A stretch of 64,000 nucleotides of DNA from an uncultured virus (IMG/VR IMGVR_UViG_3300035191_000065) (Duplodnaviria; Heunggongvirae; Uroviricota; Caudoviricetes), in IMG/VR virus record IMGVR_UViG_3300035191_000065; one strand, 5' to 3'. Below, in pieces: positions 21,215 to 64,000 of the stretch. Both the position numbers and the translations under genes were made by a program. Each line of letters starts with the position of its first letter. The first letter of the stretch is position 1. The notes under the pieces are model-generated. The model saw only the letters and a list, made by a program, of their open reading frames with translations, was not told the DNA's origin and did not search any database.

Positions 21215-21631
21215 GCTATCCCTCCTTTAAAATTGACCCTTGTTTTCCCACAACAGGGAGCCCTGCCATCCTACCATATTCGTCCTCAGGATTCATTTCC
21301 AGCGCACCAGGAGGGATCTGCAATTTTTCCAACAAAATTAATGGGCTGTTAGAGAAATAATGCCGTCCTCAGGATTAATTAAGTTGACGCGGCGGTGCGA
21401 TCTCAGGCAGTCTGTTCGGACGGGTTATATGAAATCTCAACAACCGAAAGGTGAAAAGCAAACGTAAGATAATCGAACGCAGCAAGGCCTCGGGTGCCGT
21501 CCGCTAAGGTGGAACCCCATCTTTTCCTTTTGCCTTTCGGTTGGAAAAGATGAGATTTCATATAAACCCCCGCCATCTTGGCGGCGGGCACGCGGGACCT
21601 TGCTGCCTTTTTAATAGGGGACTGTGGTTCT

Positions 21632-23146
21632 ATGACAGCGCGAGCGGAAAACAAGGCCGATCCAGGCCGTCGTAGGATTATTAAATCCGCGCACGAAAAG
21701 AACCTACCCCCAGCACCCCGCAAAGAAACAATCGAGCTGGTCTCACCGAACGAGATCAAGGCTCACCCGCGCAACCAGCAAATTTACGGTGACGAGCCGG
21801 ATAAAGACCTGATCTCGGATATCAGTAAGCGCGGCATGATCGAGCCCATCGTTGTCGATCGTGCAACGTGCTTCATCATTTCCGGTCGCCGTCGCCATAA
21901 AGCCGCCATCACCCTGAAGATGCCGACAGTTCCGGTCGTCTGGCGTGACTACGAGACCGACGACGAGACCGTTGAGGCCATCGTCATGCACAACGCTTAC
22001 CGGCGTAAGTCGGAGCGTCAGATCATGATGGAGGTCGAGGCGATCTGGGACAAAGAGTTCGAGAAGAACAAGGAGCGGCAAGCAGAAGGTGGTCGCAAGG
22101 GGCGCCGCGGACCAGCAAGCGTCTACCGAAAGTCGGATGACACAGAGATTGAGATCGAACATCCTGAGGACGACGAGGATCGGGAAGAGGGCGGACTGAG
22201 GATCGCCAAGAAGCCCAAGCCGAAACGTCGTTTGACTCGCAACGAAGTCGGCAAGGCCATCGGTCAGCCGCCGATGAAAGTTGCGCGTGCTGCTGCAATT
22301 ATAAATCAGGCCAAGGAAGAACTTGGCGAAAACTGGATGGAACATCCCGCGGTGCAGGCAGTTTTCAAGGGTGAGTCATCGATCAATAGCGCCGCTCTTG
22401 CGATGCATAAGCAGAAGCGCGAAGACAAGCTGATCGAAGAAGCTAAAAGTATCAAGAGCATCGATGCTGATATTCGATGTCAAGATCATATCAACGATAT
22501 TGAAAGAGAATCGGTAGATCACATCATTGTCGATCCCGACTACAAAGAGGACACTGGCTACGGTGACCGGCTCGAAGAGACCGAGGCGCTCGACGTCTTT
22601 GAGGACTGGAACAGCGAACTGAAGCTGGATGAGGTTTCAGTCTGGGCGCACGAGTGGGCGCGCGTCATCAAGACGGGCGGGAATATCGCTGTTTTTTGTG
22701 ACGAGCGCTACGTGAGCTTTATTCGTGAGGCTCTGATAAGCAACGGCTTCGACATGGTACAGGTTGTAACCTGGCACCTAACAAATCCCGACACTGGCTC
22801 GAAGAAAACAACGTTTTTGGATACGTGTCAGTTTATCGTGACGGCCTGCATGGGCGCTGATAAGCGCAACGCCTTCCATTGGAAGGGTCCCAAGCAGATG
22901 CACAACTTCATTGAAGGTGCGACCGTCAAGGGGCGCAAGGCTCTTCGGCACCTAGGGGAGCGTCCCGAGTTTGTGCTCAAGTGGCTCGTTGAGAGGCTTA
23001 CAAATCCTGGCGACCTCGTCCTCGACAACTTCGCCGGCACTGGCACTACTGGCTTGGCCTGTAAACGGCTGAAGAGAAACTTCATCCTTGTCGAGAGGGA
23101 ACCGAAGAATGTCGAAATCATAAAGGCGAGGCTGTCAAAACGGTGA
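21632..23146 (+). CDS. ParB-like N-terminal domain fused to an N6A/N4C DNA methyltransferase (motif IV is DPDY)
   Basis: EPIVV...IISGRRR.KA; IIVDPDY; TNPGDLVLDNFAGTGTT. Confidence 0.85.
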   Translation: MTARAENKADPGRRRIIKSAHEKNLPPAPRKETIELVSPNEIKAHPRNQQIYGDEPDKDLISDISKRGMIEPIVVDRATCFIISGRRRHKAAITLKMPTVPVVWRDYETDDETVEAIVMHNAYRRKSERQIMMEVEAIWDKEFEKNKERQAEGGRKGRRGPASVYRKSDDTEIEIEHPEDDEDREEGGLRIAKKPKPKRRLTRNEVGKAIGQPPMKVARAAAIINQAKEELGENWMEHPAVQAVFKGESSINSAALAMHKQKREDKLIEEAKSIKSIDADIRCQDHINDIERESVDHIIVDPDYKEDTGYGDRLEETEALDVFEDWNSELKLDEVSVWAHEWARVIKTGGNIAVFCDERYVSFIREALISNGFDMVQVVTWHLTNPDTGSKKTTFLDTCQFIVTACMGADKRNAFHWKGPKQMHNFIEGATVKGRKALRHLGERPEFVLKWLVERLTNPGDLVLDNFAGTGTTGLACKRLKRNFILVEREPKNVEIIKARLSKR

Positions 23147-23158
23147 ACGGGGGAGGGG

Positions 23159-24307
23159 ATGGTTCCGAAAGAGAAGCTCTTCTATTTTAAAAGATTTTTC
23201 TGTGGTCGACCGGATGTATACGCTTTTCGTATCGCTGATGGAAGCTACAGACCACGGCGCCTTCCCGAGTACAAGCTAACTAACGACGTAATCGTCCGAC
23301 ATATGAAGGGCGATATCATGATTGGTGCCTATCCCTTCTTGGCTGACGGAACCTGCGAGTGGGTTGCCGCTGACTTCGATGGTCATCACGGTAACGCCTT
23401 CGAACACGCAAAGGCCCTCGCTGACACTTTTAGAGAGTACGGGATCGACCCCCTGTGCAACACCAGCCAGTCAGGGCGTGGCGTTCACGTTCGCATCATC
23501 TTTGACGACCCTCGTGGCGACTTGAAGCCCATGGAGGTCTGGGTGGCCAGGCGCTTCATGGAGGCGTTTATAGAGATGTGCGAGTTGCCGACCCTTGGTG
23601 AGGGTGGCGCACTCGATAGAATTTTCCCAACACAAGACACGCTGCCTGGTGGCCGATCGATCGGTAACCAGATAGCCATGCCGCTCAACATGGAAGCGGC
23701 GAATACACGAAACGGTTCTATGCTGCTCGATCAGCAGTTCAATACCGTCCCTCTCGGCGAGCCGACGTGGGATATGATCGAGCTTTACGATCCAGTAAAT
23801 CGGCTGGACGTGGTTGATGCTCTTGGAGAAATCGGAAGGTTGGATGTGCTGGAGGACAGCCCGGCGAAGAGAAGCCGAGGTGGGTCCTTCGATGGGAGAG
23901 AGAGTTTTCAGGACAGCAACGCCAGTGACCTCGACATGATCATTGGCGGTTGCGAGTTCATTCAGTACGCCTGCGAGAGTGGGCTCACGTACTTCGAATG
24001 GATCGCGTTGGCAGCGAATCTCGCGTGCTACGACCCTCATGGTGGCCGAGCGCTCTTTCACAAGATATCTGCTTGTGACAAGGGCCGCTACAATCACGAA
24101 ACCACAGAAAAAAAGTACGAAAACATCCTTCGCACTATGGGCGGACCCATTACGTGTGAGCGCATCGCTTCAGAAGGATGGCGATGCCCTATGCTTGGGG
24201 AAGATGGTGTCTGCAACAAATTCCGCAACGACTTTGGCCGAGGCCCGCGCGCCCCGGCCTCAATACCGAGGTTTGTAGGGAACGATGTAGCTGACCACGC
24301 GGCGTAG
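23159..24307 (+). CDS. Archaeo-eukaryotic primase (TOTE-type) with C-terminal Cys-containing PriCT/PriL-like domain
   Basis: GRPDVYA, IGAYP, ADFD, SQSGRGVH, IFP.QD, GNQIAMPL; C-terminal PITCERI..CP..C. Confidence 0.85.
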   Translation: MVPKEKLFYFKRFFCGRPDVYAFRIADGSYRPRRLPEYKLTNDVIVRHMKGDIMIGAYPFLADGTCEWVAADFDGHHGNAFEHAKALADTFREYGIDPLCNTSQSGRGVHVRIIFDDPRGDLKPMEVWVARRFMEAFIEMCELPTLGEGGALDRIFPTQDTLPGGRSIGNQIAMPLNMEAANTRNGSMLLDQQFNTVPLGEPTWDMIELYDPVNRLDVVDALGEIGRLDVLEDSPAKRSRGGSFDGRESFQDSNASDLDMIIGGCEFIQYACESGLTYFEWIALAANLACYDPHGGRALFHKISACDKGRYNHETTEKKYENILRTMGGPITCERIASEGWRCPMLGEDGVCNKFRNDFGRGPRAPASIPRFVGNDVADHAA

Positions 24308-36671: not shown

Positions 36672-37958
36672 CTATTTCTTGGGTTTGGGCTTCTTCTCCT
36701 TTCGGTTGTACAGCCGAGAGGAGTAGTTGCGTTCGGCTTTGCTTTCAAGGGTGGCTTGTACGAGGCTGACCTTCTCGCGCCCAAGCTCTTCGGCTTTGGT
36801 CTTCATCAGCTCCTTGAGCTTCTTTGTGGAGACAGTCGTCAGGTCGGCGAGCAGCTCGGCGGGGCTTATGTCGAACTTGTGAGCGAGCAGTGGGATGACG
36901 ACGTCGGCTGGATAGTTCTTTCGCTCGACAGATGAGAGCTTGAAGAACCAGCCGCCGATCTCCAGCGGGTGTTTGGATGATTTGAGGTGTGCCTTGATGA
37001 CGTCGTCGATTTCGTCGAGCCGCTTGCCGACGATCTTCTTTCGGATTGCAAGCGCAGCACGCTCCTCGATGAGCTTGTCAAAGTCATTCATGTCCTCGGC
37101 GACGGTGTGGCTGTCGCCCTTGAGGGCTTTTTGGTAGGCGGGGCAGTCGTGGCGGTGGTGACAGTAGGTGCAGTTGGAGTTGAGCCGTGGAGCCCACTCT
37201 CGCTCGTCGCGTATCTGAGCCGCCGTCGCCAGGATGTATCGTTCGGTGTCGCGGCGCTCGGCGGTGCTGTGGCGAACCTGAAGGTGAGTGCCGTCACGCA
37301 GCAGATTGAGTGCGGCGCGGTAGGCCCTGGCGTCAGGCCACTTCTCGCGAGCGGCGAGATCGTAGATGGAGAGTTGGAGCGACTCTTGTGCGTCCCGGCT
37401 CGTGAGAAACGCCTTGGTCGTCTTCCAATCGATGACTTCGATGAGAGTCTCGACTTCGCCCGTCTCCTCGTCTACTAGATCGTGTCCGAGGACAAGGTCT
37501 AGGTAGCCGACAACCTCCACGGGCATGAGGTTGCTGGGCTCGATCGCCGTCTCTTCCTCTTCCTCCTCGTCATCATACTCATCATCCTGGGGACGATACT
37601 CAATGGTGAACTTGAAGGGCTCCTCGATGCCGAGGATGGAGTGGGGGTCGAGAGGGATGCTCCACTTCTCAACCCAGTCGGCGACGATCTGCAGTCCGTC
37701 GGTAAAAAGCTCTTTGCCGCTCAGACCCAGCTCCTTCCCCCATTCCTCGGTGTAGATGTCGGAGGCGAGTGAAGCGTCGAAGGGCTTGGCCTCTCCCGCT
37801 TCCTTGTACTTCTTGAGGAGCTTCTGAATTGTTCGGTGAACGACTCTGCCGAGCCGGATGGGAGCGGTTGGCTTCCCACGCTTTTTCTGGTTGCGCTCCA
37901 GGTCGTATTGCCTTGGACATTCTTCGTACTGTTCAAGAGCGCTGTCGCTCGTCCTCAT
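36672..37958 (-). CDS. PD-(D/E)XK nuclease (RecB/Cas4-like, four-Cys cluster)
   Basis: S.S....Y..CP, G..VH, GYLDLV, VIDWKT, QL.IY, CxxC-x5-C. Confidence 0.88.
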   Translation of the reverse strand: MRTSDSALEQYEECPRQYDLERNQKKRGKPTAPIRLGRVVHRTIQKLLKKYKEAGEAKPFDASLASDIYTEEWGKELGLSGKELFTDGLQIVADWVEKWSIPLDPHSILGIEEPFKFTIEYRPQDDEYDDEEEEEETAIEPSNLMPVEVVGYLDLVLGHDLVDEETGEVETLIEVIDWKTTKAFLTSRDAQESLQLSIYDLAAREKWPDARAYRAALNLLRDGTHLQVRHSTAERRDTERYILATAAQIRDEREWAPRLNSNCTYCHHRHDCPAYQKALKGDSHTVAEDMNDFDKLIEERAALAIRKKIVGKRLDEIDDVIKAHLKSSKHPLEIGGWFFKLSSVERKNYPADVVIPLLAHKFDISPAELLADLTTVSTKKLKELMKTKAEELGREKVSLVQATLESKAERNYSSRLYNRKEKKPKPKK

Positions 37959-39134: not shown

Positions 39135-39847
39135 GTCTCTACTTATAGGCCGTAGAGATGGCCTTTATGACACACCTATCGGCGGCTCGAACCAGTGCTG
39201 AAGTTGGGCTGTCTCTACTCATAGGCCGTAGAGATGGCCTTTATGACAACCAAGGCGCAAGTTTGGTTCGGTTCAGAATGGAGCAAGTCTCTACTCATAG
39301 GCTGTAGAGATAGCCTTTGTGACGGACGTAGCTAACGGAACCGGACTGCCCTACTCTACAGTGTCTCTACTCATAGGCCGTAGAGATGGCCTTTATGACA
39401 GGACGGGAAATATCGTTTACAGAGGAAGACAACCGATGTCTCTACTCATAGGCCGTAGAGATGGCCTTTGTGACTTCGTCCTTCGAGCACGAGTACATCC
39501 TGGGCTTGCTCCGGTCTCTACTCATAGGCTGTAGAGATAGCCTTTGTGACTCGTGCCCGCACATCTCGCTCCTCAGCGGCCTCTCGTCCTGTCTCTACTC
39601 ATAGGCTGTAGAGATAGCCTTTGTGACCTGTCAGAGGGTGGAGTTTACGATGCTGTTTATCCGTCTCTACTCATAGGCTGTAGAGATAGCCTTTGTGACC
39701 TTAACAATGGAAGCATTTTGATCAAGAATTCTAACTTGTCTCTACTCATAGGCTGTAGAGATAGCCTTTGTGACCCCTTTGAGGACAGAATGTTTGCGAA
39801 GCGTCTACATGTCTCTACTCATAGGCTGTAGAGATAGCCTTTGTGAC
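39135..39847 (-). CRISPR. CRISPR array: 10 repeats of 37 bp and 9 spacers of 35-40 bp
   Basis: Minus-strand repeat GTCAYAAAGGCYATCTCTACRGCCTATGAGTAGAGAC; plus-strand starts 39135, 39211, 39287, 39363, 39438, 39514, 39591, 39663, 39738, 39811; the 39135 copy carries an extra mutation, consistent with a trailer end. Confidence 0.98.
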
Positions 39848-39910
39848 GGCACTGTCAGAATGCCTTGTCTTTTCGTTGAAGTATATGCCGTTTTTCGAGC
39901 GGGTCCGAGA

Positions 39911-41647
39911 TTAATCAGTGTGGTCTTCGTTATCTCCTTGTTTTTTCTTTTCTTGTACCGATTTCCATCCGTAATTCTTTGACTTTTTAGGTGCGAGCGG
40001 GTCCAGGGAGTTGATTGCATCAGCGGCTCTCGCGAGCATGTTCTTGGCATTGTTGATGTCCTGGTCCCAATGTTCACCACATTCCTGGCAGGTGTGCATG
40101 ATGTTACCAGAGGCATCCCATGGCTCTGTGCAACCGCAAAAAAAGCACTCTTGGGTTGCATATGTGGTTTGGCCCTCGATAATGTGACACCCGAGCCGTG
40201 TCGCGGTGCTGCCGATGATCTGCCTGGCAATGGATGGGGCAGCTTCAACCCGCTGACCCGCTGGACCTCTTTTCCGATCTTCGTCTTCGACAATGTTCTT
40301 CATGTCGTATTTTTCGGCGATGATGATGTCGTAGTTTGTCGCTATGTAAAGAGCGAACTTTCGATAGACATCGCGCCGGTGGTTTAGGGCGCCATTTTTT
40401 ACACCACGGGCATACCAATTGAGATGCCTATCTTTGTAGGCCCAGGGTTTCAAAATTGCGCTCTGTTCGTCGGTTAAGTCTTCGCGACGAGAAAGTTTTT
40501 GAAAAGAGTCGGGGCTTTTCCATTTGGCGCAGTTGATGCCGGACATGATGAGCTTAGGCCGGATTTCATCGATCAGTTTGTCTCGAATCGATCGTAGGTT
40601 GTTGTATTTTTCAATACGATCTCTGAATTCCTTGTCGCTTAGAATAATCTCGCCCGATTGACCGTCAGTATCCACCCAGGTGGCTGCTCGAAGGGATCCA
40701 TCGGCTAGTTTGCGCCAACCTAAATTAATGGCAACGGCTTTTTTGTTGGTTTTTGGAAAAGCGTCGGGGACCTCAAGAGTGATTTGTACCTGCCATTTGT
40801 AGGCTTGATGTTGATGCCATGGGGTTCGGATAACACATACCCATTTGACAATCGCGCCAGCAGGAAAGCCCCGGTGCAGGTAAACGGGGATGTCAGCCCA
40901 TATGGGTTTTCTGTTTTCAGATCCTACGCGCAAATGGATGGTTGTGTATTGCATCTTGCGGCGTTGGCCACGGGGAATGTTCGTGTTGTACGCATTGGCT
41001 GGAAGGGGATCTATGTAACATCTCGTGTTAGGTTTGAACAGGTTCTCTGCTGGCATCCCATTCTGAATTTGCATGCCAACAACACCATGGCCTGTCCATT
41101 TTCGCCACGCTGGCCGTTCGGTCCATGGGGGGCGCTTTTTGCCAGGCTTAAAAATAGGCTTTGCTTTCTTGGCTTGCTGAAACGCTCGCTCGATGCACAG
41201 ATAGGTTCCCCAGAAAGTTTCGGTCTCGGATCGAGCCTTTTTTATAGATGCCGTTAGCTCATCCTTGGCTGCCTTGTATTTGGTTTGCAATGAATCAGCA
41301 TGAGGGGCCTTGGCGTCTTTGAGAGCTGCAGCCGCCGCCTTCTTTTCGGCAACAGCCTTTTTCATTTCATCGGGCGTTGGTGGAGTAATACTTGAGTCGC
41401 TTGACTTGGCTAGTTTTTTTAGCGCGATCAATCCGTCAACAGCCTCTTCAGCGTTATCGAAGAGTGCCTGAGCTTTTGCGATCTCCGGGAACTCGGCTTG
41501 GGCTGCGCGAATTGCCTTGCGGTAACAACGTTCTAGCTCGATGAGCTTATTGTAGTAGTTGTGCCCGTGGTAGATGTTGTCATGAACGAGCTGTGCGTTT
41601 TTTGTTGGTGCACGGCCTCCAAAATTGAAAACGATGGTTCTGGACAT
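39911..41647 (-). CDS. cas12m: Compact type V CRISPR effector, Cas12m (V-U1)-like, 578 aa, RuvC-I Asp replaced by Asn
   Basis: FWGTY, WTGHG..G.QIQ, LRVGS..KP.W.DIPV.LHR.FP, AVAINLGWR, KWKSP, HRRDVYR, IIIAE, AAPS, CxxC/CxxC zinc finger, WDQDINNAKN, all recalled from Cas12m; AAGGAGG SD; abuts the array. Confidence 0.85.
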   Translation of the reverse strand: MSRTIVFNFGGRAPTKNAQLVHDNIYHGHNYYNKLIELERCYRKAIRAAQAEFPEIAKAQALFDNAEEAVDGLIALKKLAKSSDSSITPPTPDEMKKAVAEKKAAAAALKDAKAPHADSLQTKYKAAKDELTASIKKARSETETFWGTYLCIERAFQQAKKAKPIFKPGKKRPPWTERPAWRKWTGHGVVGMQIQNGMPAENLFKPNTRCYIDPLPANAYNTNIPRGQRRKMQYTTIHLRVGSENRKPIWADIPVYLHRGFPAGAIVKWVCVIRTPWHQHQAYKWQVQITLEVPDAFPKTNKKAVAINLGWRKLADGSLRAATWVDTDGQSGEIILSDKEFRDRIEKYNNLRSIRDKLIDEIRPKLIMSGINCAKWKSPDSFQKLSRREDLTDEQSAILKPWAYKDRHLNWYARGVKNGALNHRRDVYRKFALYIATNYDIIIAEKYDMKNIVEDEDRKRGPAGQRVEAAPSIARQIIGSTATRLGCHIIEGQTTYATQECFFCGCTEPWDASGNIMHTCQECGEHWDQDINNAKNMLARAADAINSLDPLAPKKSKNYGWKSVQEKKKQGDNEDHTD

Positions 41648-41745
41648 TTGTTGCCTCCTTGGAGCCCTGGCCACTTTCTCAGAGTGACCAGGACTTATTA
41701 GTGGTGGTCACGATCCCACGGGCGTCCTGGGGATGAACGCCTGTG

Positions 41746-42576
41746 CTACCCGACCATCTCTTGAACGCGGCTCCTTTTGGTGCCGAAGGCGTAGGCTCGG
41801 CGACACTGGGAGCAGCTCCCGACGAACATCCCGTAGAACTTTTCGTTGAACTCTTTGAAGCGCTCGGGGAAGCCACCTGAGACAAAGTTGTGGACGCGAT
41901 CGTAGTCCCAGGTGCCGAAGGCGCACTTATAGATGACGCCGTCCTCGTCTATTAAGAACGTATACTTGTTAACAGGGTTGTGGCAGTAGCAAGCCATCAT
42001 CCCGAAGAGGCTCATGTCGAACGCAGAGCGCCCGACCGGAACGATCCCCATGTCGCTCTCGTCGCCTCCGACCTTGTGAAGCAGGTTGTGCTCCTTGCAG
42101 AACTCTTCTGCCGTGACCACATGTTTGTTTGTGTGCCACTTGTCGGTGGTGATGGCGAGGAAGCAGTGCTCGTGGGACTCCATGAATTCGAGGACTTGTC
42201 TTGAGGACTGTTCGTCCGCGGCCCAGTCGCCGTTTGTGACTAGGCGAGCGTAGTCGAGCCCCTCAACGATCATCCCCAGGACTTCTTCCCAGTCCGGGTT
42301 GAGCCAGAACTCGCCGCCCATGATGTTCGCCGAGTGGATGGGGTTTGCGTCGAGGAACTGGTGAACCAGCTCTGCGACCTCTGGGGGCATGTGCTTATCC
42401 TGCTGGGGTGATGAGGACCAGCAGCAGTGGCCACATTTCTGGGTGCATTTGAGAGTTAACCGAATGGTGGGGCGAAGAGTGCGGTAGCAGCAGTCGCGCT
42501 TGTCGCAGCTCTCGCAATCGCAATCTCTTCGCCCCTCGCACTTCGGGTCGATGCAGAACTGGCAGCGCTCGTTCAT
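41746..42576 (-). CDS. Radical SAM protein with C-terminal SPASM/twitch-like Cys motif
   Basis: CTQKCGHC, MGGE, VTNG, IDEDGVIYKC. Confidence 0.85.
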   Translation of the reverse strand: MNERCQFCIDPKCEGRRDCDCESCDKRDCCYRTLRPTIRLTLKCTQKCGHCCWSSSPQQDKHMPPEVAELVHQFLDANPIHSANIMGGEFWLNPDWEEVLGMIVEGLDYARLVTNGDWAADEQSSRQVLEFMESHEHCFLAITTDKWHTNKHVVTAEEFCKEHNLLHKVGGDESDMGIVPVGRSAFDMSLFGMMACYCHNPVNKYTFLIDEDGVIYKCAFGTWDYDRVHNFVSGGFPERFKEFNEKFYGMFVGSCSQCRRAYAFGTKRSRVQEMVG

Positions 42577-43187
42577 TTCTGGGCCTCGTCGTTGCTGATG
42601 AGACGGATGTGGACCGTCGCCGTGTCGTGGCTGACCCTGATCCGTCCCCAGGATGGAGTGATATAGAGGAAGCCGCTGCGCTGAAGGCAGTCGCACTTCC
42701 ACTCGGGGAGCCGTACCGGCTCGTCGCCGATGGACCGAGTCCGAGTGCCGCGCATGTCGGTCAGCTCGAAGACGTCGTGCGCGTTCATGCCGAGTTCGCT
42801 GATGCGGCCCACAGGCTTGCGATCCGGCGTCACGGTGACGACAAAATCCATGATTCGGTAGCCCGACTGATCGACCCTGTCCGTTGGGATGATGACGATG
42901 CCATCACACTCAATCTCGCCGTTGGACGAGAGAAGCATGACCCGGTCGAACTCTTCTGGAGTCATATGATTGGCGTCGTTCATTGGATTGATTCCTTTCG
43001 GGAAACACCTTTTGCAGGGGTCGTAGCTGACGGGTATCTCCCATTCGCGCTCCAAGGCGCTGACGTCTACCTTGGTTCCGCACTTGGGACGACCGCTCGC
43101 GTCGGCCAGGTGAAAGCGCGATCCCTTTCTGGTGTTGCTGTTGAGCACGAAGGCGTATCCGTGCGGTGCTGGGATGTTAGACTTCAT
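42573..43187 (-). CDS. Hypothetical protein
   Basis: H..C..CxxC N-terminal zinc motif; operon packing. Confidence 0.55.
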   Translation of the reverse strand: MKSNIPAPHGYAFVLNSNTRKGSRFHLADASGRPKCGTKVDVSALEREWEIPVSYDPCKRCFPKGINPMNDANHMTPEEFDRVMLLSSNGEIECDGIVIIPTDRVDQSGYRIMDFVVTVTPDRKPVGRISELGMNAHDVFELTDMRGTRTRSIGDEPVRLPEWKCDCLQRSGFLYITPSWGRIRVSHDTATVHIRLISNDEAQK

Positions 43188-60045: not shown

Positions 60046-60900
60046 ATGCCAGGCGGATATCTGTTCGACGAAAACGATGATGAAGGAATCTTTGGCGACG
60101 ACCCCAAAAGAGCTGCTGGAGACCCAGATGCAAGAGCCGATATGGAGGCTGAGTCCTTTGTTCCTGGAATTACGATGGCCGTCGATGCAGATGGCTTCGT
60201 TATGTTCCCAGAGCTGGAAGGCGAGCAGAGCATTCTCGATCCGCCACCAGCCGTAGACATCGAGAACTTCATCTGTCTAGGAGAGTGTCGACACTACACA
60301 GAAAACGTCAGCCTCGTATTTGAGGGGCCAGCGCCCGACTCCGATCAGAATGTCGAGATTGGACGGTGGTGTGGGAAAGTACGGACCTGGGCCGAGCAGA
60401 CAGACCTCACCGAGGCCGAGATCAAGGGCTGCACTGCGTTCGAGCCGGTCGGTCACGGAGACCCGGACAGAATCCGAAGAGCGTGCGTACAAAACTCTCT
60501 TGTTCTTGCCGAGATACGTCAGTTGGAGATTGACCAGAAGGTAAATCTCGGCATCTGCGCTTTTGGTCCCTGCGAGTCGTTCATCGAAATGATCATTCGA
60601 AAGCCGACCGAAGAAGATATGGAGTCGCACCGGTGGTGTTTGCGCCTCGGAGGACTTGGTCGCCTTTACAGTCTGCGAGAACGACCGGTAATGGCTTGTA
60701 CCGGCTGGCGACCTCTTGGAAACAACCCCCAGATCGCCGCGATCGCCGCGAAAAACATTCAAACGATCGCTCGCTATAGAAAACTTATGGCCGAGCGAGA
60801 AATCGACGAAGGCGTCGAAAAAACAGGAAAGACGGCGGGCGAAATGCTCGCAGAGACCGAAGCAGCAATGGAATCCATGAAGGAGGATCACAATGGGTGA
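60046..60900 (+). CDS. Hypothetical protein with duplicated Cys-rich domain
   Basis: Two copies of IC...C..Y/F...RWC...CT.F/W.P; GAGGAG SD. Confidence 0.75.
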   Translation: MPGGYLFDENDDEGIFGDDPKRAAGDPDARADMEAESFVPGITMAVDADGFVMFPELEGEQSILDPPPAVDIENFICLGECRHYTENVSLVFEGPAPDSDQNVEIGRWCGKVRTWAEQTDLTEAEIKGCTAFEPVGHGDPDRIRRACVQNSLVLAEIRQLEIDQKVNLGICAFGPCESFIEMIIRKPTEEDMESHRWCLRLGGLGRLYSLRERPVMACTGWRPLGNNPQIAAIAAKNIQTIARYRKLMAEREIDEGVEKTGKTAGEMLAETEAAMESMKEDHNG

Positions 60901-61807
60901 AGCCCAGGCACAGCCGACCGCAGACTCAACGACCGAGGCATCAGCTCAGCCCCAGGCAGCTCCCGAGCAGCCCCAGGCCGAGGAACAGGTGGCCGACGTC
61001 CAAGATCCGGGGAGCATTCCCAACACAGAGTTCCTCGGCATCTCCGAAGCGCTGCAGATGGGGATGCAGACGCTCAAGCAGATGCCGCAGGCCAATCCGG
61101 CGCGGCTCAAGATGTTCTTGATCAACGACCTCTACCCCATCCTGGTCGACTTCGCTCAGATGGCCAACTGGTATACCGGTGACCTCCACGAGCGAGTCAG
61201 CAATATCGAGGACGAGGTCGAGGGCACGGGCGGAGAGGGCATCAGCCCCGAGTTCGCTGAGCAGCTCATCGAGTTCATCGGTCAGTCGCTCCAGCTCTTC
61301 GGCCTTCTGGTCAACCTCACCAAGGGAAATCCAGAGGTTGCCCACTCGGTGCAAATGATGATCGCCAGGGCGCCTGGGCTCATCGCCAGGATTCAGGAGA
61401 TCACTCTTTCGGAGGAAGAGGAAGAGGAGGACGAAGAGGAAGACGAAGAAGATGTCGAAACTCCCGAGGTGCTCGAACCTCGCTCTCAAATGACCGAGGA
61501 ACAAGCGGCGGCTGCCGACGCTGCTAAAGCGGAGGTGGCGGCTCCGGAGGCGGAGGAATCCACTGCCCCCGCTGCTCCAGAGCCCGAGACTTCGCCGTCT
61601 CAGGAGGCGCCTCTGGTCGAGAGCCCGGCACCCGAGGCAGCCTCTGTGGCGCCCGAGACCGAGCCACAACAGGAATCAGCTCCCGAACCGCCGCCAACTG
61701 AAGAGGCAGCGGTTGAGCAAGCAGCTCCCGAGCCCACTCCTGAGCCCACTCCAGAGCCGCCTGCAGCGGAGGTAGCTGAGCAAGGGGAGGAGAAGAAAAA
61801 TGGCTGA
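60893..61807 (+). CDS. Hypothetical acidic protein with Glu/Pro/Ala-rich tail
   Basis: AAGGAGG SD; overlapping operon. Confidence 0.75.
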   Translation: MGEAQAQPTADSTTEASAQPQAAPEQPQAEEQVADVQDPGSIPNTEFLGISEALQMGMQTLKQMPQANPARLKMFLINDLYPILVDFAQMANWYTGDLHERVSNIEDEVEGTGGEGISPEFAEQLIEFIGQSLQLFGLLVNLTKGNPEVAHSVQMMIARAPGLIARIQEITLSEEEEEEDEEEDEEDVETPEVLEPRSQMTEEQAAAADAAKAEVAAPEAEESTAPAAPEPETSPSQEAPLVESPAPEAASVAPETEPQQESAPEPPPTEEAAVEQAAPEPTPEPTPEPPAAEVAEQGEEKKNG

Positions 61808-64000
61808 AGTACCGGAAGAGGAAATGGGCACAGACCCCGATCTCCTCGATGAAGAAGATGTCGAACAGACGCCGACTTCAAAGCCAAAACCGGCCAAGAA
61901 GCGCCGGAAGAAAAAAAGTGGTGGTCAAGACGACGTCCCCAGGACGGCTCAGCCACCTCGAAGGCGTGCCTTTGTGGAATCACAAGTGAAAACGTCTCTG
62001 GCTCAGGGCGACATGATGGAGGTCATGAACCGCTACGACTGGGAATCGGGCGACTATGACGTCTCGGTGCTCAGAGTGCAGCCACAGAACTGGCACGGGC
62101 GAAACATCCAGGGCTACATCGCCTCATTTCCGCACTCGATCGACGAGGCTTTCATCCGTGAGCACTTCGGCGGTGGCGTCTACGACCTCAAAATTCGTGG
62201 GCCGAATCCGAGGGCCGGAACGTCCAAGGGTTTCCTCGATGGAACCAGGGTAAAAATAAGTGGTGAACCTATCGTGAGCGCGATGGACAAACACCTCGCT
62301 TTCGATGATGGCGGCATCATGCTCAGCAATCCGCAGGGTGGTCCTCCGTCTCAAGCGCAGATACGGGAGGCACAGATGGCGAGAAGAGGAGGTAGAAGAG
62401 CACAAGCGGCGTGGGAAGATGAGGAAGGCGGCGGGAGGGGTAACGGCGAAGACCCTGAGATGGTTCGGATGAGCTTCGATCGTCTCGGCAAGCTGGCTGA
62501 CTCTGCTTCGGAGGAGGCAAAGCAACTCCGTGAGCGCCTAATCGATGAGGCGACCAGAAAGGTAGGCGGTGAAGGTCTTTCATCAGAAGCGCTCTTGATG
62601 ATCAAAGAGTCTGCTGACCGAGCGATTGAGAGTGAGAGAGCCGCCGCAGAGCGTCTTCGGAAGACAGAACAGCAGCATCGCCAGGATTTCGAGCGTATGA
62701 TCGCCAAGGTCAGTAATCAGAACCACGGTATCCCGCCTGAAATGCTCGCGAGTCTGACCGAGCAGCATCGCTCCGAGATCAACGCGCTCAACGAGTCAAG
62801 ACTCACTCAGCTCACTCAGCTTCAGGACCGTCACGAACAAGAGGTGAACGCGCTGAGAGAAAGATATGAGCGCGAGATCACAAACCTACAGGAGAGAAAT
62901 CGAGACGAGGTCGATCGAGTACGAAGCGAGCTTCAGGGTCGTCTCGACAGAGAGCAAGAACAGTTCAAGCGAGAGATGGAGCGAGAGCGAGACAACAACC
63001 GCAAGGAGGTAGAGCGCCTGAAGGAAGAGGCTGATCGTCGTTACAACGATGCAGAGACTCAAGCCAAGCAGCGTTACGAGAAGCTGAACGACGACTGGCA
63101 ACGTCGTTTCGATCAGGAGCAAGACCGGGCTAGAGCCGCTTTGGACCAGGCACAGGAAAGAGCACGCACTGAGCGAGATACGGCTGATCGAAACAATCAG
63201 ATGCAGCTCGACCACATGAAGTCTCTTCACGAGACGCAGGTTACCCAGCTCACAGGCTCTCTTGGCAACCAGGTCGAACAAGAGCGTACTCGTGGTGAAG
63301 CTGCTATCGCGAGTCTGAAGGCCCAGCACGAAGCCGCGATTTCTCAGCTTAACACGCAGCTCGACATGTCGGTCAAGCTCCAGGAGACGAGCTATAAGGC
63401 TCAAATCGATTCCCTGCAGCAGGAGTTGGCTCGCGCCAGGGCCGATCTCGACGCGACAAAGCAGAAGGTGGCCGATCAGGGAGACTTGGTCACTCAGGCG
63501 CAGAAGCTCAAGACGGTTGGTGAATCTCTGTCTGGTGTGCTTGGTCTTGGCGGTGCTTCGGTGGGTGCTGGGGCTCTATCTGCCGACGTCGACCTGGAAC
63601 CAAAGCAGGAAGAGCCGAAGACGTGGTGGGGCAAGGTCATGCAGTTCTCCGAGTCCAACGTCGGAGAAAGCGTGTTTGAGTTCCTGAAGAACATGGCGGC
63701 TGGTGCTGCTGGTATGCATCCTGGTGCGCCCATGCCCGGCATGATGCCTGGTCTCCCGGGTCAGGTTCAGCCAAGTTATGGACCGCCACCTGGGGCTGTA
63801 TACGGAATGCCCCATCAGCCGGCGCCCGGTCCTTCCTATGGACCACCTCCTCAGCCAACCTATTCGCCGCCGCCACAAGCTCAGCCATACTCCCATCAGG
63901 TGATGGTCGATGAGGAAGAGTATGAAGAGGAGGTCATGGAGCCCGGTGGTGGTGTCGTGACAGGATCTTTTGTCGACGACGAAGTCGAGGAGGCAGGGCC
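61800..64000 (+). CDS. Large coiled-coil protein (over 730 aa, truncated at right edge)
   Basis: Own translation MAEVPEEEMG...IREHFGGGVYDLKIRG, then long E/Q/R heptads and a Pro-rich segment; GGAGGAG SD. Confidence 0.8.
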   Translation, partial: MAEVPEEEMGTDPDLLDEEDVEQTPTSKPKPAKKRRKKKSGGQDDVPRTAQPPRRRAFVESQVKTSLAQGDMMEVMNRYDWESGDYDVSVLRVQPQNWHGRNIQGYIASFPHSIDEAFIREHFGGGVYDLKIRGPNPRAGTSKGFLDGTRVKISGEPIVSAMDKHLAFDDGGIMLSNPQGGPPSQAQIREAQMARRGGRRAQAAWEDEEGGGRGNGEDPEMVRMSFDRLGKLADSASEEAKQLRERLIDEATRKVGGEGLSSEALLMIKESADRAIESERAAAERLRKTEQQHRQDFERMIAKVSNQNHGIPPEMLASLTEQHRSEINALNESRLTQLTQLQDRHEQEVNALRERYEREITNLQERNRDEVDRVRSELQGRLDREQEQFKREMERERDNNRKEVERLKEEADRRYNDAETQAKQRYEKLNDDWQRRFDQEQDRARAALDQAQERARTERDTADRNNQMQLDHMKSLHETQVTQLTGSLGNQVEQERTRGEAAIASLKAQHEAAISQLNTQLDMSVKLQETSYKAQIDSLQQELARARADLDATKQKVADQGDLVTQAQKLKTVGESLSGVLGLGGASVGAGALSADVDLEPKQEEPKTWWGKVMQFSESNVGESVFEFLKNMAAGAAGMHPGAPMPGMMPGLPGQVQPSYGPPPGAVYGMPHQPAPGPSYGPPPQPTYSPPPQAQPYSHQVMVDEEEYEEEVMEPGGGVVTGSFVDDEVEEAG

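Follow-up and report, generated by a model that had tools for sequence, protein, structure and literature searches.

The 64,000-nucleotide (nt) stretch of DNA analysed here (the window) is part of a single linear 182,770-bp contig, IMG/VR virus record IMGVR_UViG_3300035191_000065, with a CheckV completeness estimate of 95%. On its minus strand lies a gene for a 578-amino-acid (aa) protein of the Cas12m group, followed downstream in the same direction by a CRISPR array whose nearest repeat is 63 bp from the stop codon (Table 1). The locus as a whole is best explained as a type V-M system on a phage-like carrier, which most probably acts through CRISPR RNA (crRNA)-guided binding of double-stranded DNA (dsDNA) without cutting. 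A first-pass annotation, made from the sequence alone, had proposed a virus-encoded, stand-alone Cas12m-like system with an inactivated RuvC site, and its description of the layout was borne out. The open reading frame (ORF) and the ten-repeat array lie where it had placed them, and its statement that the window holds no cas1 or cas2 extends to the whole 182,770-bp record, in which six-frame searches for cas1 (PF01867) and cas2 (PF09827) found neither.

A phmmer search of Protein Data Bank (PDB) chains with the 578-aa protein returned 23vw_A, labelled 'Cas12m', as the top match (E 4.2e-54, residues 5-540), with Cas12m2 (8hio, 8hhl) at E 4e-25 and the GoCas12m entry 8pm4 at E 9e-21, and with TnpB, Fanzor and Cas12f chains at E 6e-4 or worse. 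The PADLOC model Cas12u1 was matched at E 5.8e-84 over profile positions 4-531 of 533, V-U1 being the former name of type V-M. The PADLOC family label is ambiguous, since a second model labelled Cas12f (PDLC01692) gave an equal score (E 1.1e-84), and Pfam detects only the Cas12f1-like TNB zinc ribbon. An AlphaFold2 model built from 88 sequences (mean predicted local distance difference test score, pLDDT, 93.3) has the architecture of Cas12m, with a WED domain, a long helical REC region (helices 18-141), a RuvC domain with an insertion, and TNB. Foldseek searches of the PDB with this model gave Cas12m2 and GoCas12m structures as the four top matches (template modelling score, TM, 0.63-0.69), followed by Cas12f and TnpB at TM ~0.4. 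His258 and Arg259 are each at least 90% conserved among the 88 sequences, and their counterparts in Cas12m2, His269-Arg270, contact the crRNA scaffold (PMC10442227). The family as a whole comprises 3,529 cluster representatives at E ≤ 1e-3 and 1,202 at E ≤ 1e-30. Profile searches, phylogeny and structure prediction thus all group the protein with Cas12m, as the first-pass annotation had suggested, and by sequence and predicted fold it is a type V-M effector rather than a TnpB of the insertion sequence (IS) type.

Other identities were considered and rejected. The protein shares a RuvC and TNB core with TnpB (IS200/IS605) and Cas12f and gives weak profile matches to them, but it scores below the curated NCBIfam cut-offs for TnpB (guided_TnpB, 52.6 bits against 100; IS200_TnpB, 36.8 against 425; IS607_TnpB, 21.8 against 350) and has a long helical REC insertion. 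Neither an omega-RNA nor an IS context accompanies the gene: flanking terminal repeats are absent, a CRISPR array stands on the 3' side, and Pfam and PHROG scans of the neighbouring ORFs found no transposase families. Cas12f (type V-F) was set aside on TM values of only 0.36-0.44 for Cas12f chains and on the absence of an anti-repeat, and a Cas12k CRISPR-associated transposon (type V-K) because no tnsB, tnsC or tniQ families appeared in Pfam and PHROG scans of the window.

The RuvC triad of the protein is N308-E445-D530, with Asn in the RuvC-I motif AINLGWR, as had been read from the first-pass AINLG motif and its AAT codon. Contigs from four public DNA runs, one of which is possibly the source sample, cover the whole gene with zero differences, indicating that the AAT at codon 308 is not an assembly slip. 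The RuvC-II Glu and RuvC-III Asp, noted earlier as retained, align with the solved Cas12m chains. Across the query and 87 word-indexed homologues (n = 88), the RuvC-I column holds D in 45, N in 37, H in 5 and G in 1, the RuvC-II column E in 62 and the RuvC-III column D in 81. A FastTree tree was built from 126 rows (82 database proteins, query included, and 44 proteins from fetched loci), excluding duplicates and rows shorter than 480 aa. The query fell in a clade of 29 rows with a support of 100, all with Asn at RuvC-I (27 N-E-D and 2 N-D-D); the nearest rows outside it were D-E-D, and the RuvC-I state changed at least 19 times across the tree. Because all 29 rows carry Asn while clade members are just 35-49% identical to the query, the tree identifies Asn as an old, fixed trait of the whole clade, not a recent lesion. 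Of the earlier phrase 'inactivated RuvC', the Asn itself therefore stands, but a fresh inactivation does not, since the residue is fixed throughout the clade and the N-E-D triad had been described before. Omura et al. cite Cas12m clades by triad as HEK/HQK (clade 1), HDD (clade 2), DED/NED (clade 3) and DED/DND/NED (clade 4), so that N-E-D is already given for clades 3 and 4 (PMC10442227).

Retention of Glu445 and Asp530, two positions conserved in most of the 88 sequences, could mean that, despite the Asn, this pair still supports cutting or nicking of DNA or RNA, and Omura et al. speculated that DNA hydrolysis may be possible for members of clades 3 and 4 with a D-E-D triad (PMC10442227). 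Residual cutting is nevertheless very unlikely given the reported behaviour of relatives. As described by Bigelyte et al., every Cas12m tested, with D-E-D, H-D-D or N-D-D triads, bound dsDNA in a manner dependent on a protospacer-adjacent motif (PAM) and failed to cut DNA or RNA; these orthologues needed no trans-activating crRNA (tracrRNA) and protected Escherichia coli from plasmids and phages (PMC11013384). Conversion of Cas12m2 to D-E-D is reported to have left cutting unrestored (PMC10442227), and PmCas12m, an N-D-D protein with a solved structure, is described as nuclease-dead (bioRxiv 10.64898/2026.03.26.714355).

The minus strand was taken as the crRNA sense because the arrays of relatives follow the gene directly on its 3' side and share its strand. 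Read in this sense, the repeats end in GAC immediately before the spacer, and pairing of nt 8-12 with 21-25 and of nt 14-20 with 30-36 predicts an H-type pseudoknot. Counted back from the spacer, these pairs are -30..-26 with -17..-13 and -24..-18 with -8..-2. The reported pairs are -28..-26 with -17..-15 and -23..-20 with -6..-3 in the PmCas12m crRNA (bioRxiv 10.64898/2026.03.26.714355) and -22..-17 with -8..-3 in the Cas12m2 crRNA (PMC10442227), so the predicted pseudoknot shares its topology with both solved structures and almost matches their registers. Consensus repeats were also derived for 29 homologue-adjacent arrays, of which five outside 30-40 nt were dropped; the same architecture was present in 21 of the remaining 24, with quite different arm sequences, and in 715 of 12,000 mononucleotide shuffles (6%). 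No repeat-like or anti-repeat stretch longer than 8 nt was found outside the array between 36000 and 45000, and no repeat-like stretch with nine or fewer mismatches elsewhere in the genome; by these searches the record lacks a tracrRNA candidate. The exact 37-nt repeat had 0 matches in IMG/VR, a search from which the element's own record was possibly excluded.

Within the array, the four gene-distal repeats, one interleaved copy excepted, carry GGCC...GGCC where the others carry GGCT...AGCC, a difference that reads as a compensatory change from T-A to C-G in the first predicted stem. Identical copies sit at the gene-proximal end, which is consistent with spacer acquisition there. The two repeat types are interleaved distally at 39135-39474 of the window (variant, variant, canonical, variant, mixed), suggesting recombination between repeats rather than simple terminal decay. 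The presence of two to four substitutions in four of the ten repeats, together with Asn where Asp is catalytic, might instead be taken as the mark of a decaying relic whose nuclease was disabled by an Asp-to-Asn change and whose array is out of use. This appears most improbable. The ORF is intact, identical in the four runs and preceded by a strong Shine-Dalgarno sequence, its model is of high confidence, the Asn is shared by every member of a divergent clade, the His-Arg pair, zinc ribbon, Glu and Asp are conserved, and the stem substitutions are compensatory.

For an intact type V-M locus of this kind, PAM-dependent dsDNA binding, absence of cleavage and silencing of transcription are what we infer by analogy with the characterised proteins. 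The array would be transcribed with or after the cas12m gene, and Cas12m would trim the pre-crRNA inside the repeat to give crRNAs of about 50-60 nt. Each crRNA would guide PAM-dependent binding to dsDNA over about 17 bp, and binding without cutting would block transcription or replication of the target. Judged from its context, the system may serve its carrier against competing mobile elements, or act on genes of the host, with spacers acquired in trans.

Several results count against this interpretation. Among the characterised Cas12m proteins of the cited literature, with D-E-D, H-D-D or N-D-D triads, there is no N-E-D protein. Promoter-like and terminator-like sites were no more numerous than in shuffled sequence. 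The nine spacers were compared with the element's own genome and loci L007-L034, and the whole array with phage and plasmid collections at E ≤ 1; no protospacer was found in the own genome or in 65 related loci, and the array had no match in 50,697 phage records or 72,556 plasmid records. Finally, terminase, capsid, portal and sheath genes were not recognised among 208 ORFs with Pfam and PHROGs, and the carrier could be a non-viral element. The metagenomes that contain the element come from wetlands; no RNA runs are among the public runs listed as holding it, and the contigs from the four DNA runs break inside the array.

Because no spacer target was found, the biological role is something we can only infer. 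One rather unlikely alternative is that the system works as a TldR-like programmable transcription factor, its guides controlling host genes or the element's own genes instead of excluding rivals. Binding without cutting would suit such a function, as would the lack of any spacer match to phages or plasmids, and a role in regulating host genes has been proposed for the CRISPR systems of huge phages (PMC12607003; PMC7162821). However, the only spacer match to the own genome is a single one of 16 nt, at spacer positions 8-23, which is at chance level. When 192 spacers from 23 related arrays were compared with the genome and all loci (1.19 Mb), only contig twins and chance-level matches of 16-20 nt were obtained, and no spacer was common to distinct loci, a pattern that fits the turnover expected of immunity.

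The carrier is likely viral. Since no virion hallmark gene was recognised, the term 'virus' rests on the classification of the record and on gene content, and of the earlier claim that the system is virus-encoded it is these two elements that stand. The carrier encodes a PD-(D/E)XK exonuclease, a helicase, an AEP primase, a ParB-methylase, an M23 peptidase/endolysin-like protein, a poly-gamma-glutamate hydrolase, a T4 endonuclease V-like glycosylase, thymidylate synthase and kinase, an integrase and a Gp3-like protein, and most of its ORFs are without any family match. Further searches for virion genes were equally empty: a less stringent PHROG scan of 33 large ORFs gave no usable hallmark match, nor did tblastn queries with 22 Myxococcus phage Mx1 proteins or a Walker A scan, and a six-frame PF03237 search of the record found no terminase. 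Two Atlas look-ups returned nearest clusters that were mostly viral (Uroviricota), with scores that serve only as leads, and no usable hallmark. In the search for a host, a scan of genome contigs with a single peptide pattern gave only two distant Paraburkholderia matches. The record is a single 183-kb contig filed as a virus, not a chromosome, and none of the refuting outcomes named in the first-pass annotation was observed.

The missing virion families would also be expected if the carrier were a large plasmid or other extrachromosomal element misfiled as viral, in which case the locus would still be type V-M and would serve competition between plasmids. Two ParB-like genes and the integrase are compatible with this, subtype V-M is reported to be strongly plasmid-enriched (PMC11656645), and large putative plasmids with suites of translation genes were noted by Al-Shayeb et al. 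(PMC7162821). A plasmid carrier is decidedly unlikely, however, in view of the IMG/VR virus record and its completeness estimate, the 31 tRNA genes and tmRNA amid HNH endonuclease genes, and the endolysin-like, poly-gamma-glutamate hydrolase, T4 endonuclease V-like, thymidylate synthase/kinase and Gp3-like genes. The mostly viral Atlas clusters, for what such scores can tell, point the same way, and the general Pfam and PHROG scans turned up no relaxase, type IV secretion system, conjugation or plasmid replication families.

On a phage-like carrier, the cas12m gene stands out in composition, as the first-pass annotation had remarked in calling it more AT-rich than its neighbours. Its G+C content (GC) is 0.496 against 0.567 for the genome, a value reached by only 6 of 906 windows of the same size, and its GC at third codon positions (GC3) is 0.526 against 0.70-0.86 in six neighbouring genes. 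The present copy thus looks, from its composition, to have been recently acquired from a lower-GC donor. A related phage on a 15.5-kb metagenome contig (L038) has the same backbone of ParB-like gene, gene X, PD-(D/E)XK exonuclease, gene Y and helicase at 44-57% protein identity. There, a cas12m-array pair with 40% identity to the present one sits between Y and the helicase; here, the pair sits between the ParB-side genes and X. Given this different backbone site in L038 and the foreign composition in the present genome, the pair behaves as a transferable cassette, in support of the horizontal acquisition proposed earlier. In L038 and 10 other loci the GC of the gene is within 0.055 of the rest of the locus, and none has a GC3 deficit as large as that of the present copy. 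No notable direct or inverted repeats flank the ends of the cassette.

The exonuclease of this backbone is a 428-aa PD-(D/E)XK nuclease with a C-terminal Cys cluster, encoded at 36672-37958 (minus strand) of the window, at a distance of 1.2 kb from the array's gene-distal end. Its matches to Cas4 are weak (PADLOC E 1.6e-11), PHROG returned a match labelled 'exonuclease', and the nuclease belongs to the replication/recombination backbone conserved with L038. A general linkage of this Cas4-like nuclease to cas12m was rejected, as a homologue stood near the effector in only 1 of 15 loci, that of L038.

Relatives of the locus are widespread. A pattern scan of IMG/VR gave 28 loci with homologues, many of them on contigs of 100-200 kb and several being mutual twin copies. 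An array lies within 800 bp of the gene in 17 of the 28 by an automatic criterion; two more (L008 and L009) have a short degenerate array just upstream of the gene, and in 2 of the remaining 9 the contig ends no more than 250 nt past the gene. Their triads are D-E-D in 18, N-E-D in 5, N-G-D in 2, N-D-D in 1, H-P-D in 1 and partial in 1. Among metagenome loci, 15 of 34 have an adjacent array by the automatic criterion. A broader scenario can be drawn from these results, in which an all-Asn Cas12m cassette moves among environmental phages of ~180-200 kb and silences rivals or host defence genes; taken in all its parts it is possible but doubtful. In that scenario the phages would silence their targets during infection by binding the DNA under guidance and leaving it uncut. 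New spacers would come in trans from host Cas1-Cas2, or the Cas4-like nuclease close by would assist in their renewal, and the Asn with the Glu-Asp pair, far from being dead weight, would hold the non-target strand via one metal ion.

The closest solved relative by sequence, 23vw_A ('CRISPR-associated DNA-binding protein Cas12m', 577 aa), has the motifs AIxLGWR and WDQDxNxAKN in common with the present protein and differs in its Asp at RuvC-I (AIDLGWR); a literature search found no paper describing it. Cas12m2 from Mycolicibacterium mucogenicum (8hhl, 8hio) is alike in fold (TM 0.65-0.69), in aligning over its full length, in the WED His-Arg pair, in a crRNA pseudoknot beside the spacer (predicted here) and in having neither tracrRNA nor adaptation genes. 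It differs in its triad (H-D-D against N-E-D), in an identity of only ~22% in the structural alignment, and in a bacterial or plasmid carrier, against the phage-like record here. PmCas12m and the N-D-D Cas12m of Bigelyte et al. 2024 resemble the present system in the Asn at RuvC-I and in crRNA pseudoknot topology, and are reported to have been shown to bind dsDNA without cutting; they differ in having Asp at RuvC-II where the present protein has Glu, and in coming from bacterial RefSeq genomes.

Phage-borne examples are also on record. According to a September 2026 preprint, the first Cas12m described from a bacteriophage is a D-E-D protein that a myxophage encodes together with an array (bioRxiv 10.64898/2026.09.14.751636). 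By its description, this protein, MvCas12m of myxophage MV-1, resembles the present one in its phage carrier, adjacent array, absence of cas1, cas2 and cas4 and lack of protospacers found, and differs in its length of 610 aa, its D305/E463/D555 triad and its 8 spacers. Virus Rctr197k (KX853510), a 197-kb jumbo phage, carries a homologue with 29.5% identity over 96% of the query and the same pseudoknot architecture. An annotated CRISPR region of 1.5 kb with about 21 repeats comes directly after the gene (L035, KX853510 110803-114219), and one flanking ORF matches an ORF of the present genome at 39% identity; the homologue differs in a D-E-D triad and in being annotated only as 'similar to transposase', unrecognised as Cas12m-like. 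Subtype V-M is reported from some prophages as well as from plasmids (PMC11656645), type V-U variants without adaptation genes have been reported in huge phages (PMC7162821), and effectors of landfill viral elements cluster with Cas12m/V-U1 and have adjoining arrays (PMC12607003). Arrays beside Cas12m-like genes on viral contigs are thus common, as the IMG/VR loci indicate, and already in print. The present locus is a real, well-formed type V-M example with a described N-E-D variant, of a kind already known, and the protein or its close relatives may already be listed in the supplementary tables of the cited papers. It holds some interest for its all-Asn clade, found on large viral contigs, and for the signs that the cassette moves.

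Table 1. Features of the cas12m locus, in window coordinates
Feature	Position	Strand	Remarks
cas12m (type V-M / V-U1 effector), 578 aa	39914..41647	minus	ATG start; stop TAA at 39911-39913
Shine-Dalgarno AGGAGG	41654..41659	minus	6 nt 5' of the ATG at 41647
Asn308 codon AAT, RuvC-I position (Asp in canonical Cas12/TnpB)	40724..40726	minus	
Glu445 codon GAA, RuvC-II	40313..40315	minus	aligns with solved Cas12m chains
Asp530 codon GAC, RuvC-III (D before INNAKN)	40058..40060	minus	aligns with solved Cas12m chains
His258-Arg259, WED domain	40871..40876	minus	aligned to crRNA-scaffold-contacting His269-Arg270 of Cas12m2
TNB zinc ribbon, Cys501/504/520/523	40079..40147	minus	Pfam PF07282, E 8e-7
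63-bp stretch from stop codon to first repeat; presumed leader or read-through segment	39848..39910	minus	position only; adjoins the identical repeats
CRISPR array: 10 repeats of 37 nt, 9 spacers of 35-40 nt	39135..39847	minus (crRNA sense)	

An alternative GTG start at 41674 would give a cas12m product of 587 aa. Directly upstream of the gene, at 41746-42702 (minus strand), is a Cys-rich ORF of 318 aa with a CxxxCxxC-like motif and normal GC; it gives a faint pVip (viperin-like) match (E 0.008) and is absent from the equivalent site of L038. At 21578-24307 (plus strand), a ParB N-terminal domain is fused to an N6/N4 DNA methylase (522 aa); next come an AEP-TOTE primase-like protein (382 aa) and a 904-aa ORF without annotation.

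Further features were observed elsewhere on the carrier. At 60893-64000 (plus strand) of the window and on into genome C1:59528-62257, an ORF of 304 aa that faintly matches 'head maturation protease' (E 0.004) precedes a 909-aa coiled-coil/proline-rich protein, after which comes a long run of co-directional unannotated ORFs; the region is possibly a divergent head module. Two giant ORFs of 1,617 and 1,460 aa, with no family match, lie next to each other at genome C1:122578-131872 (plus strand), overlapping positions 1-1479 of the window. The tRNA island (L006:2145-18765; genome C1:166145-182765), with HNH endonuclease genes between its 31 tRNA genes and the tmRNA (tag VNTDNYHEAPLARAA), runs to the contig end. 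A cluster of genes for glycosyltransferases, a polysaccharide pyruvyl transferase-methyltransferase fusion, radical SAM proteins and an SGNH hydrolase (L001-L002; genome C1:554-24006) looks like a surface-sugar modification module.

The idea that the protein could serve as a compact scaffold for CRISPR interference or base editing, raised in the first-pass annotation, is not new, since base and epigenome editors based on other Cas12m orthologues are reported (PMC11013384; bioRxiv 10.64898/2026.03.26.714355); for tool building, what remains of it is one more compact (578 aa) orthologue, with an N-E-D site. For the biology of the family, the locus adds a well-resolved natural case, on a large phage-like genome, of a self-contained RNA-guided protein that most probably binds DNA without cutting it. 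It further indicates that a whole clade has stably kept Asn in its RuvC site and that the effector and array behave together as a transferable cassette.

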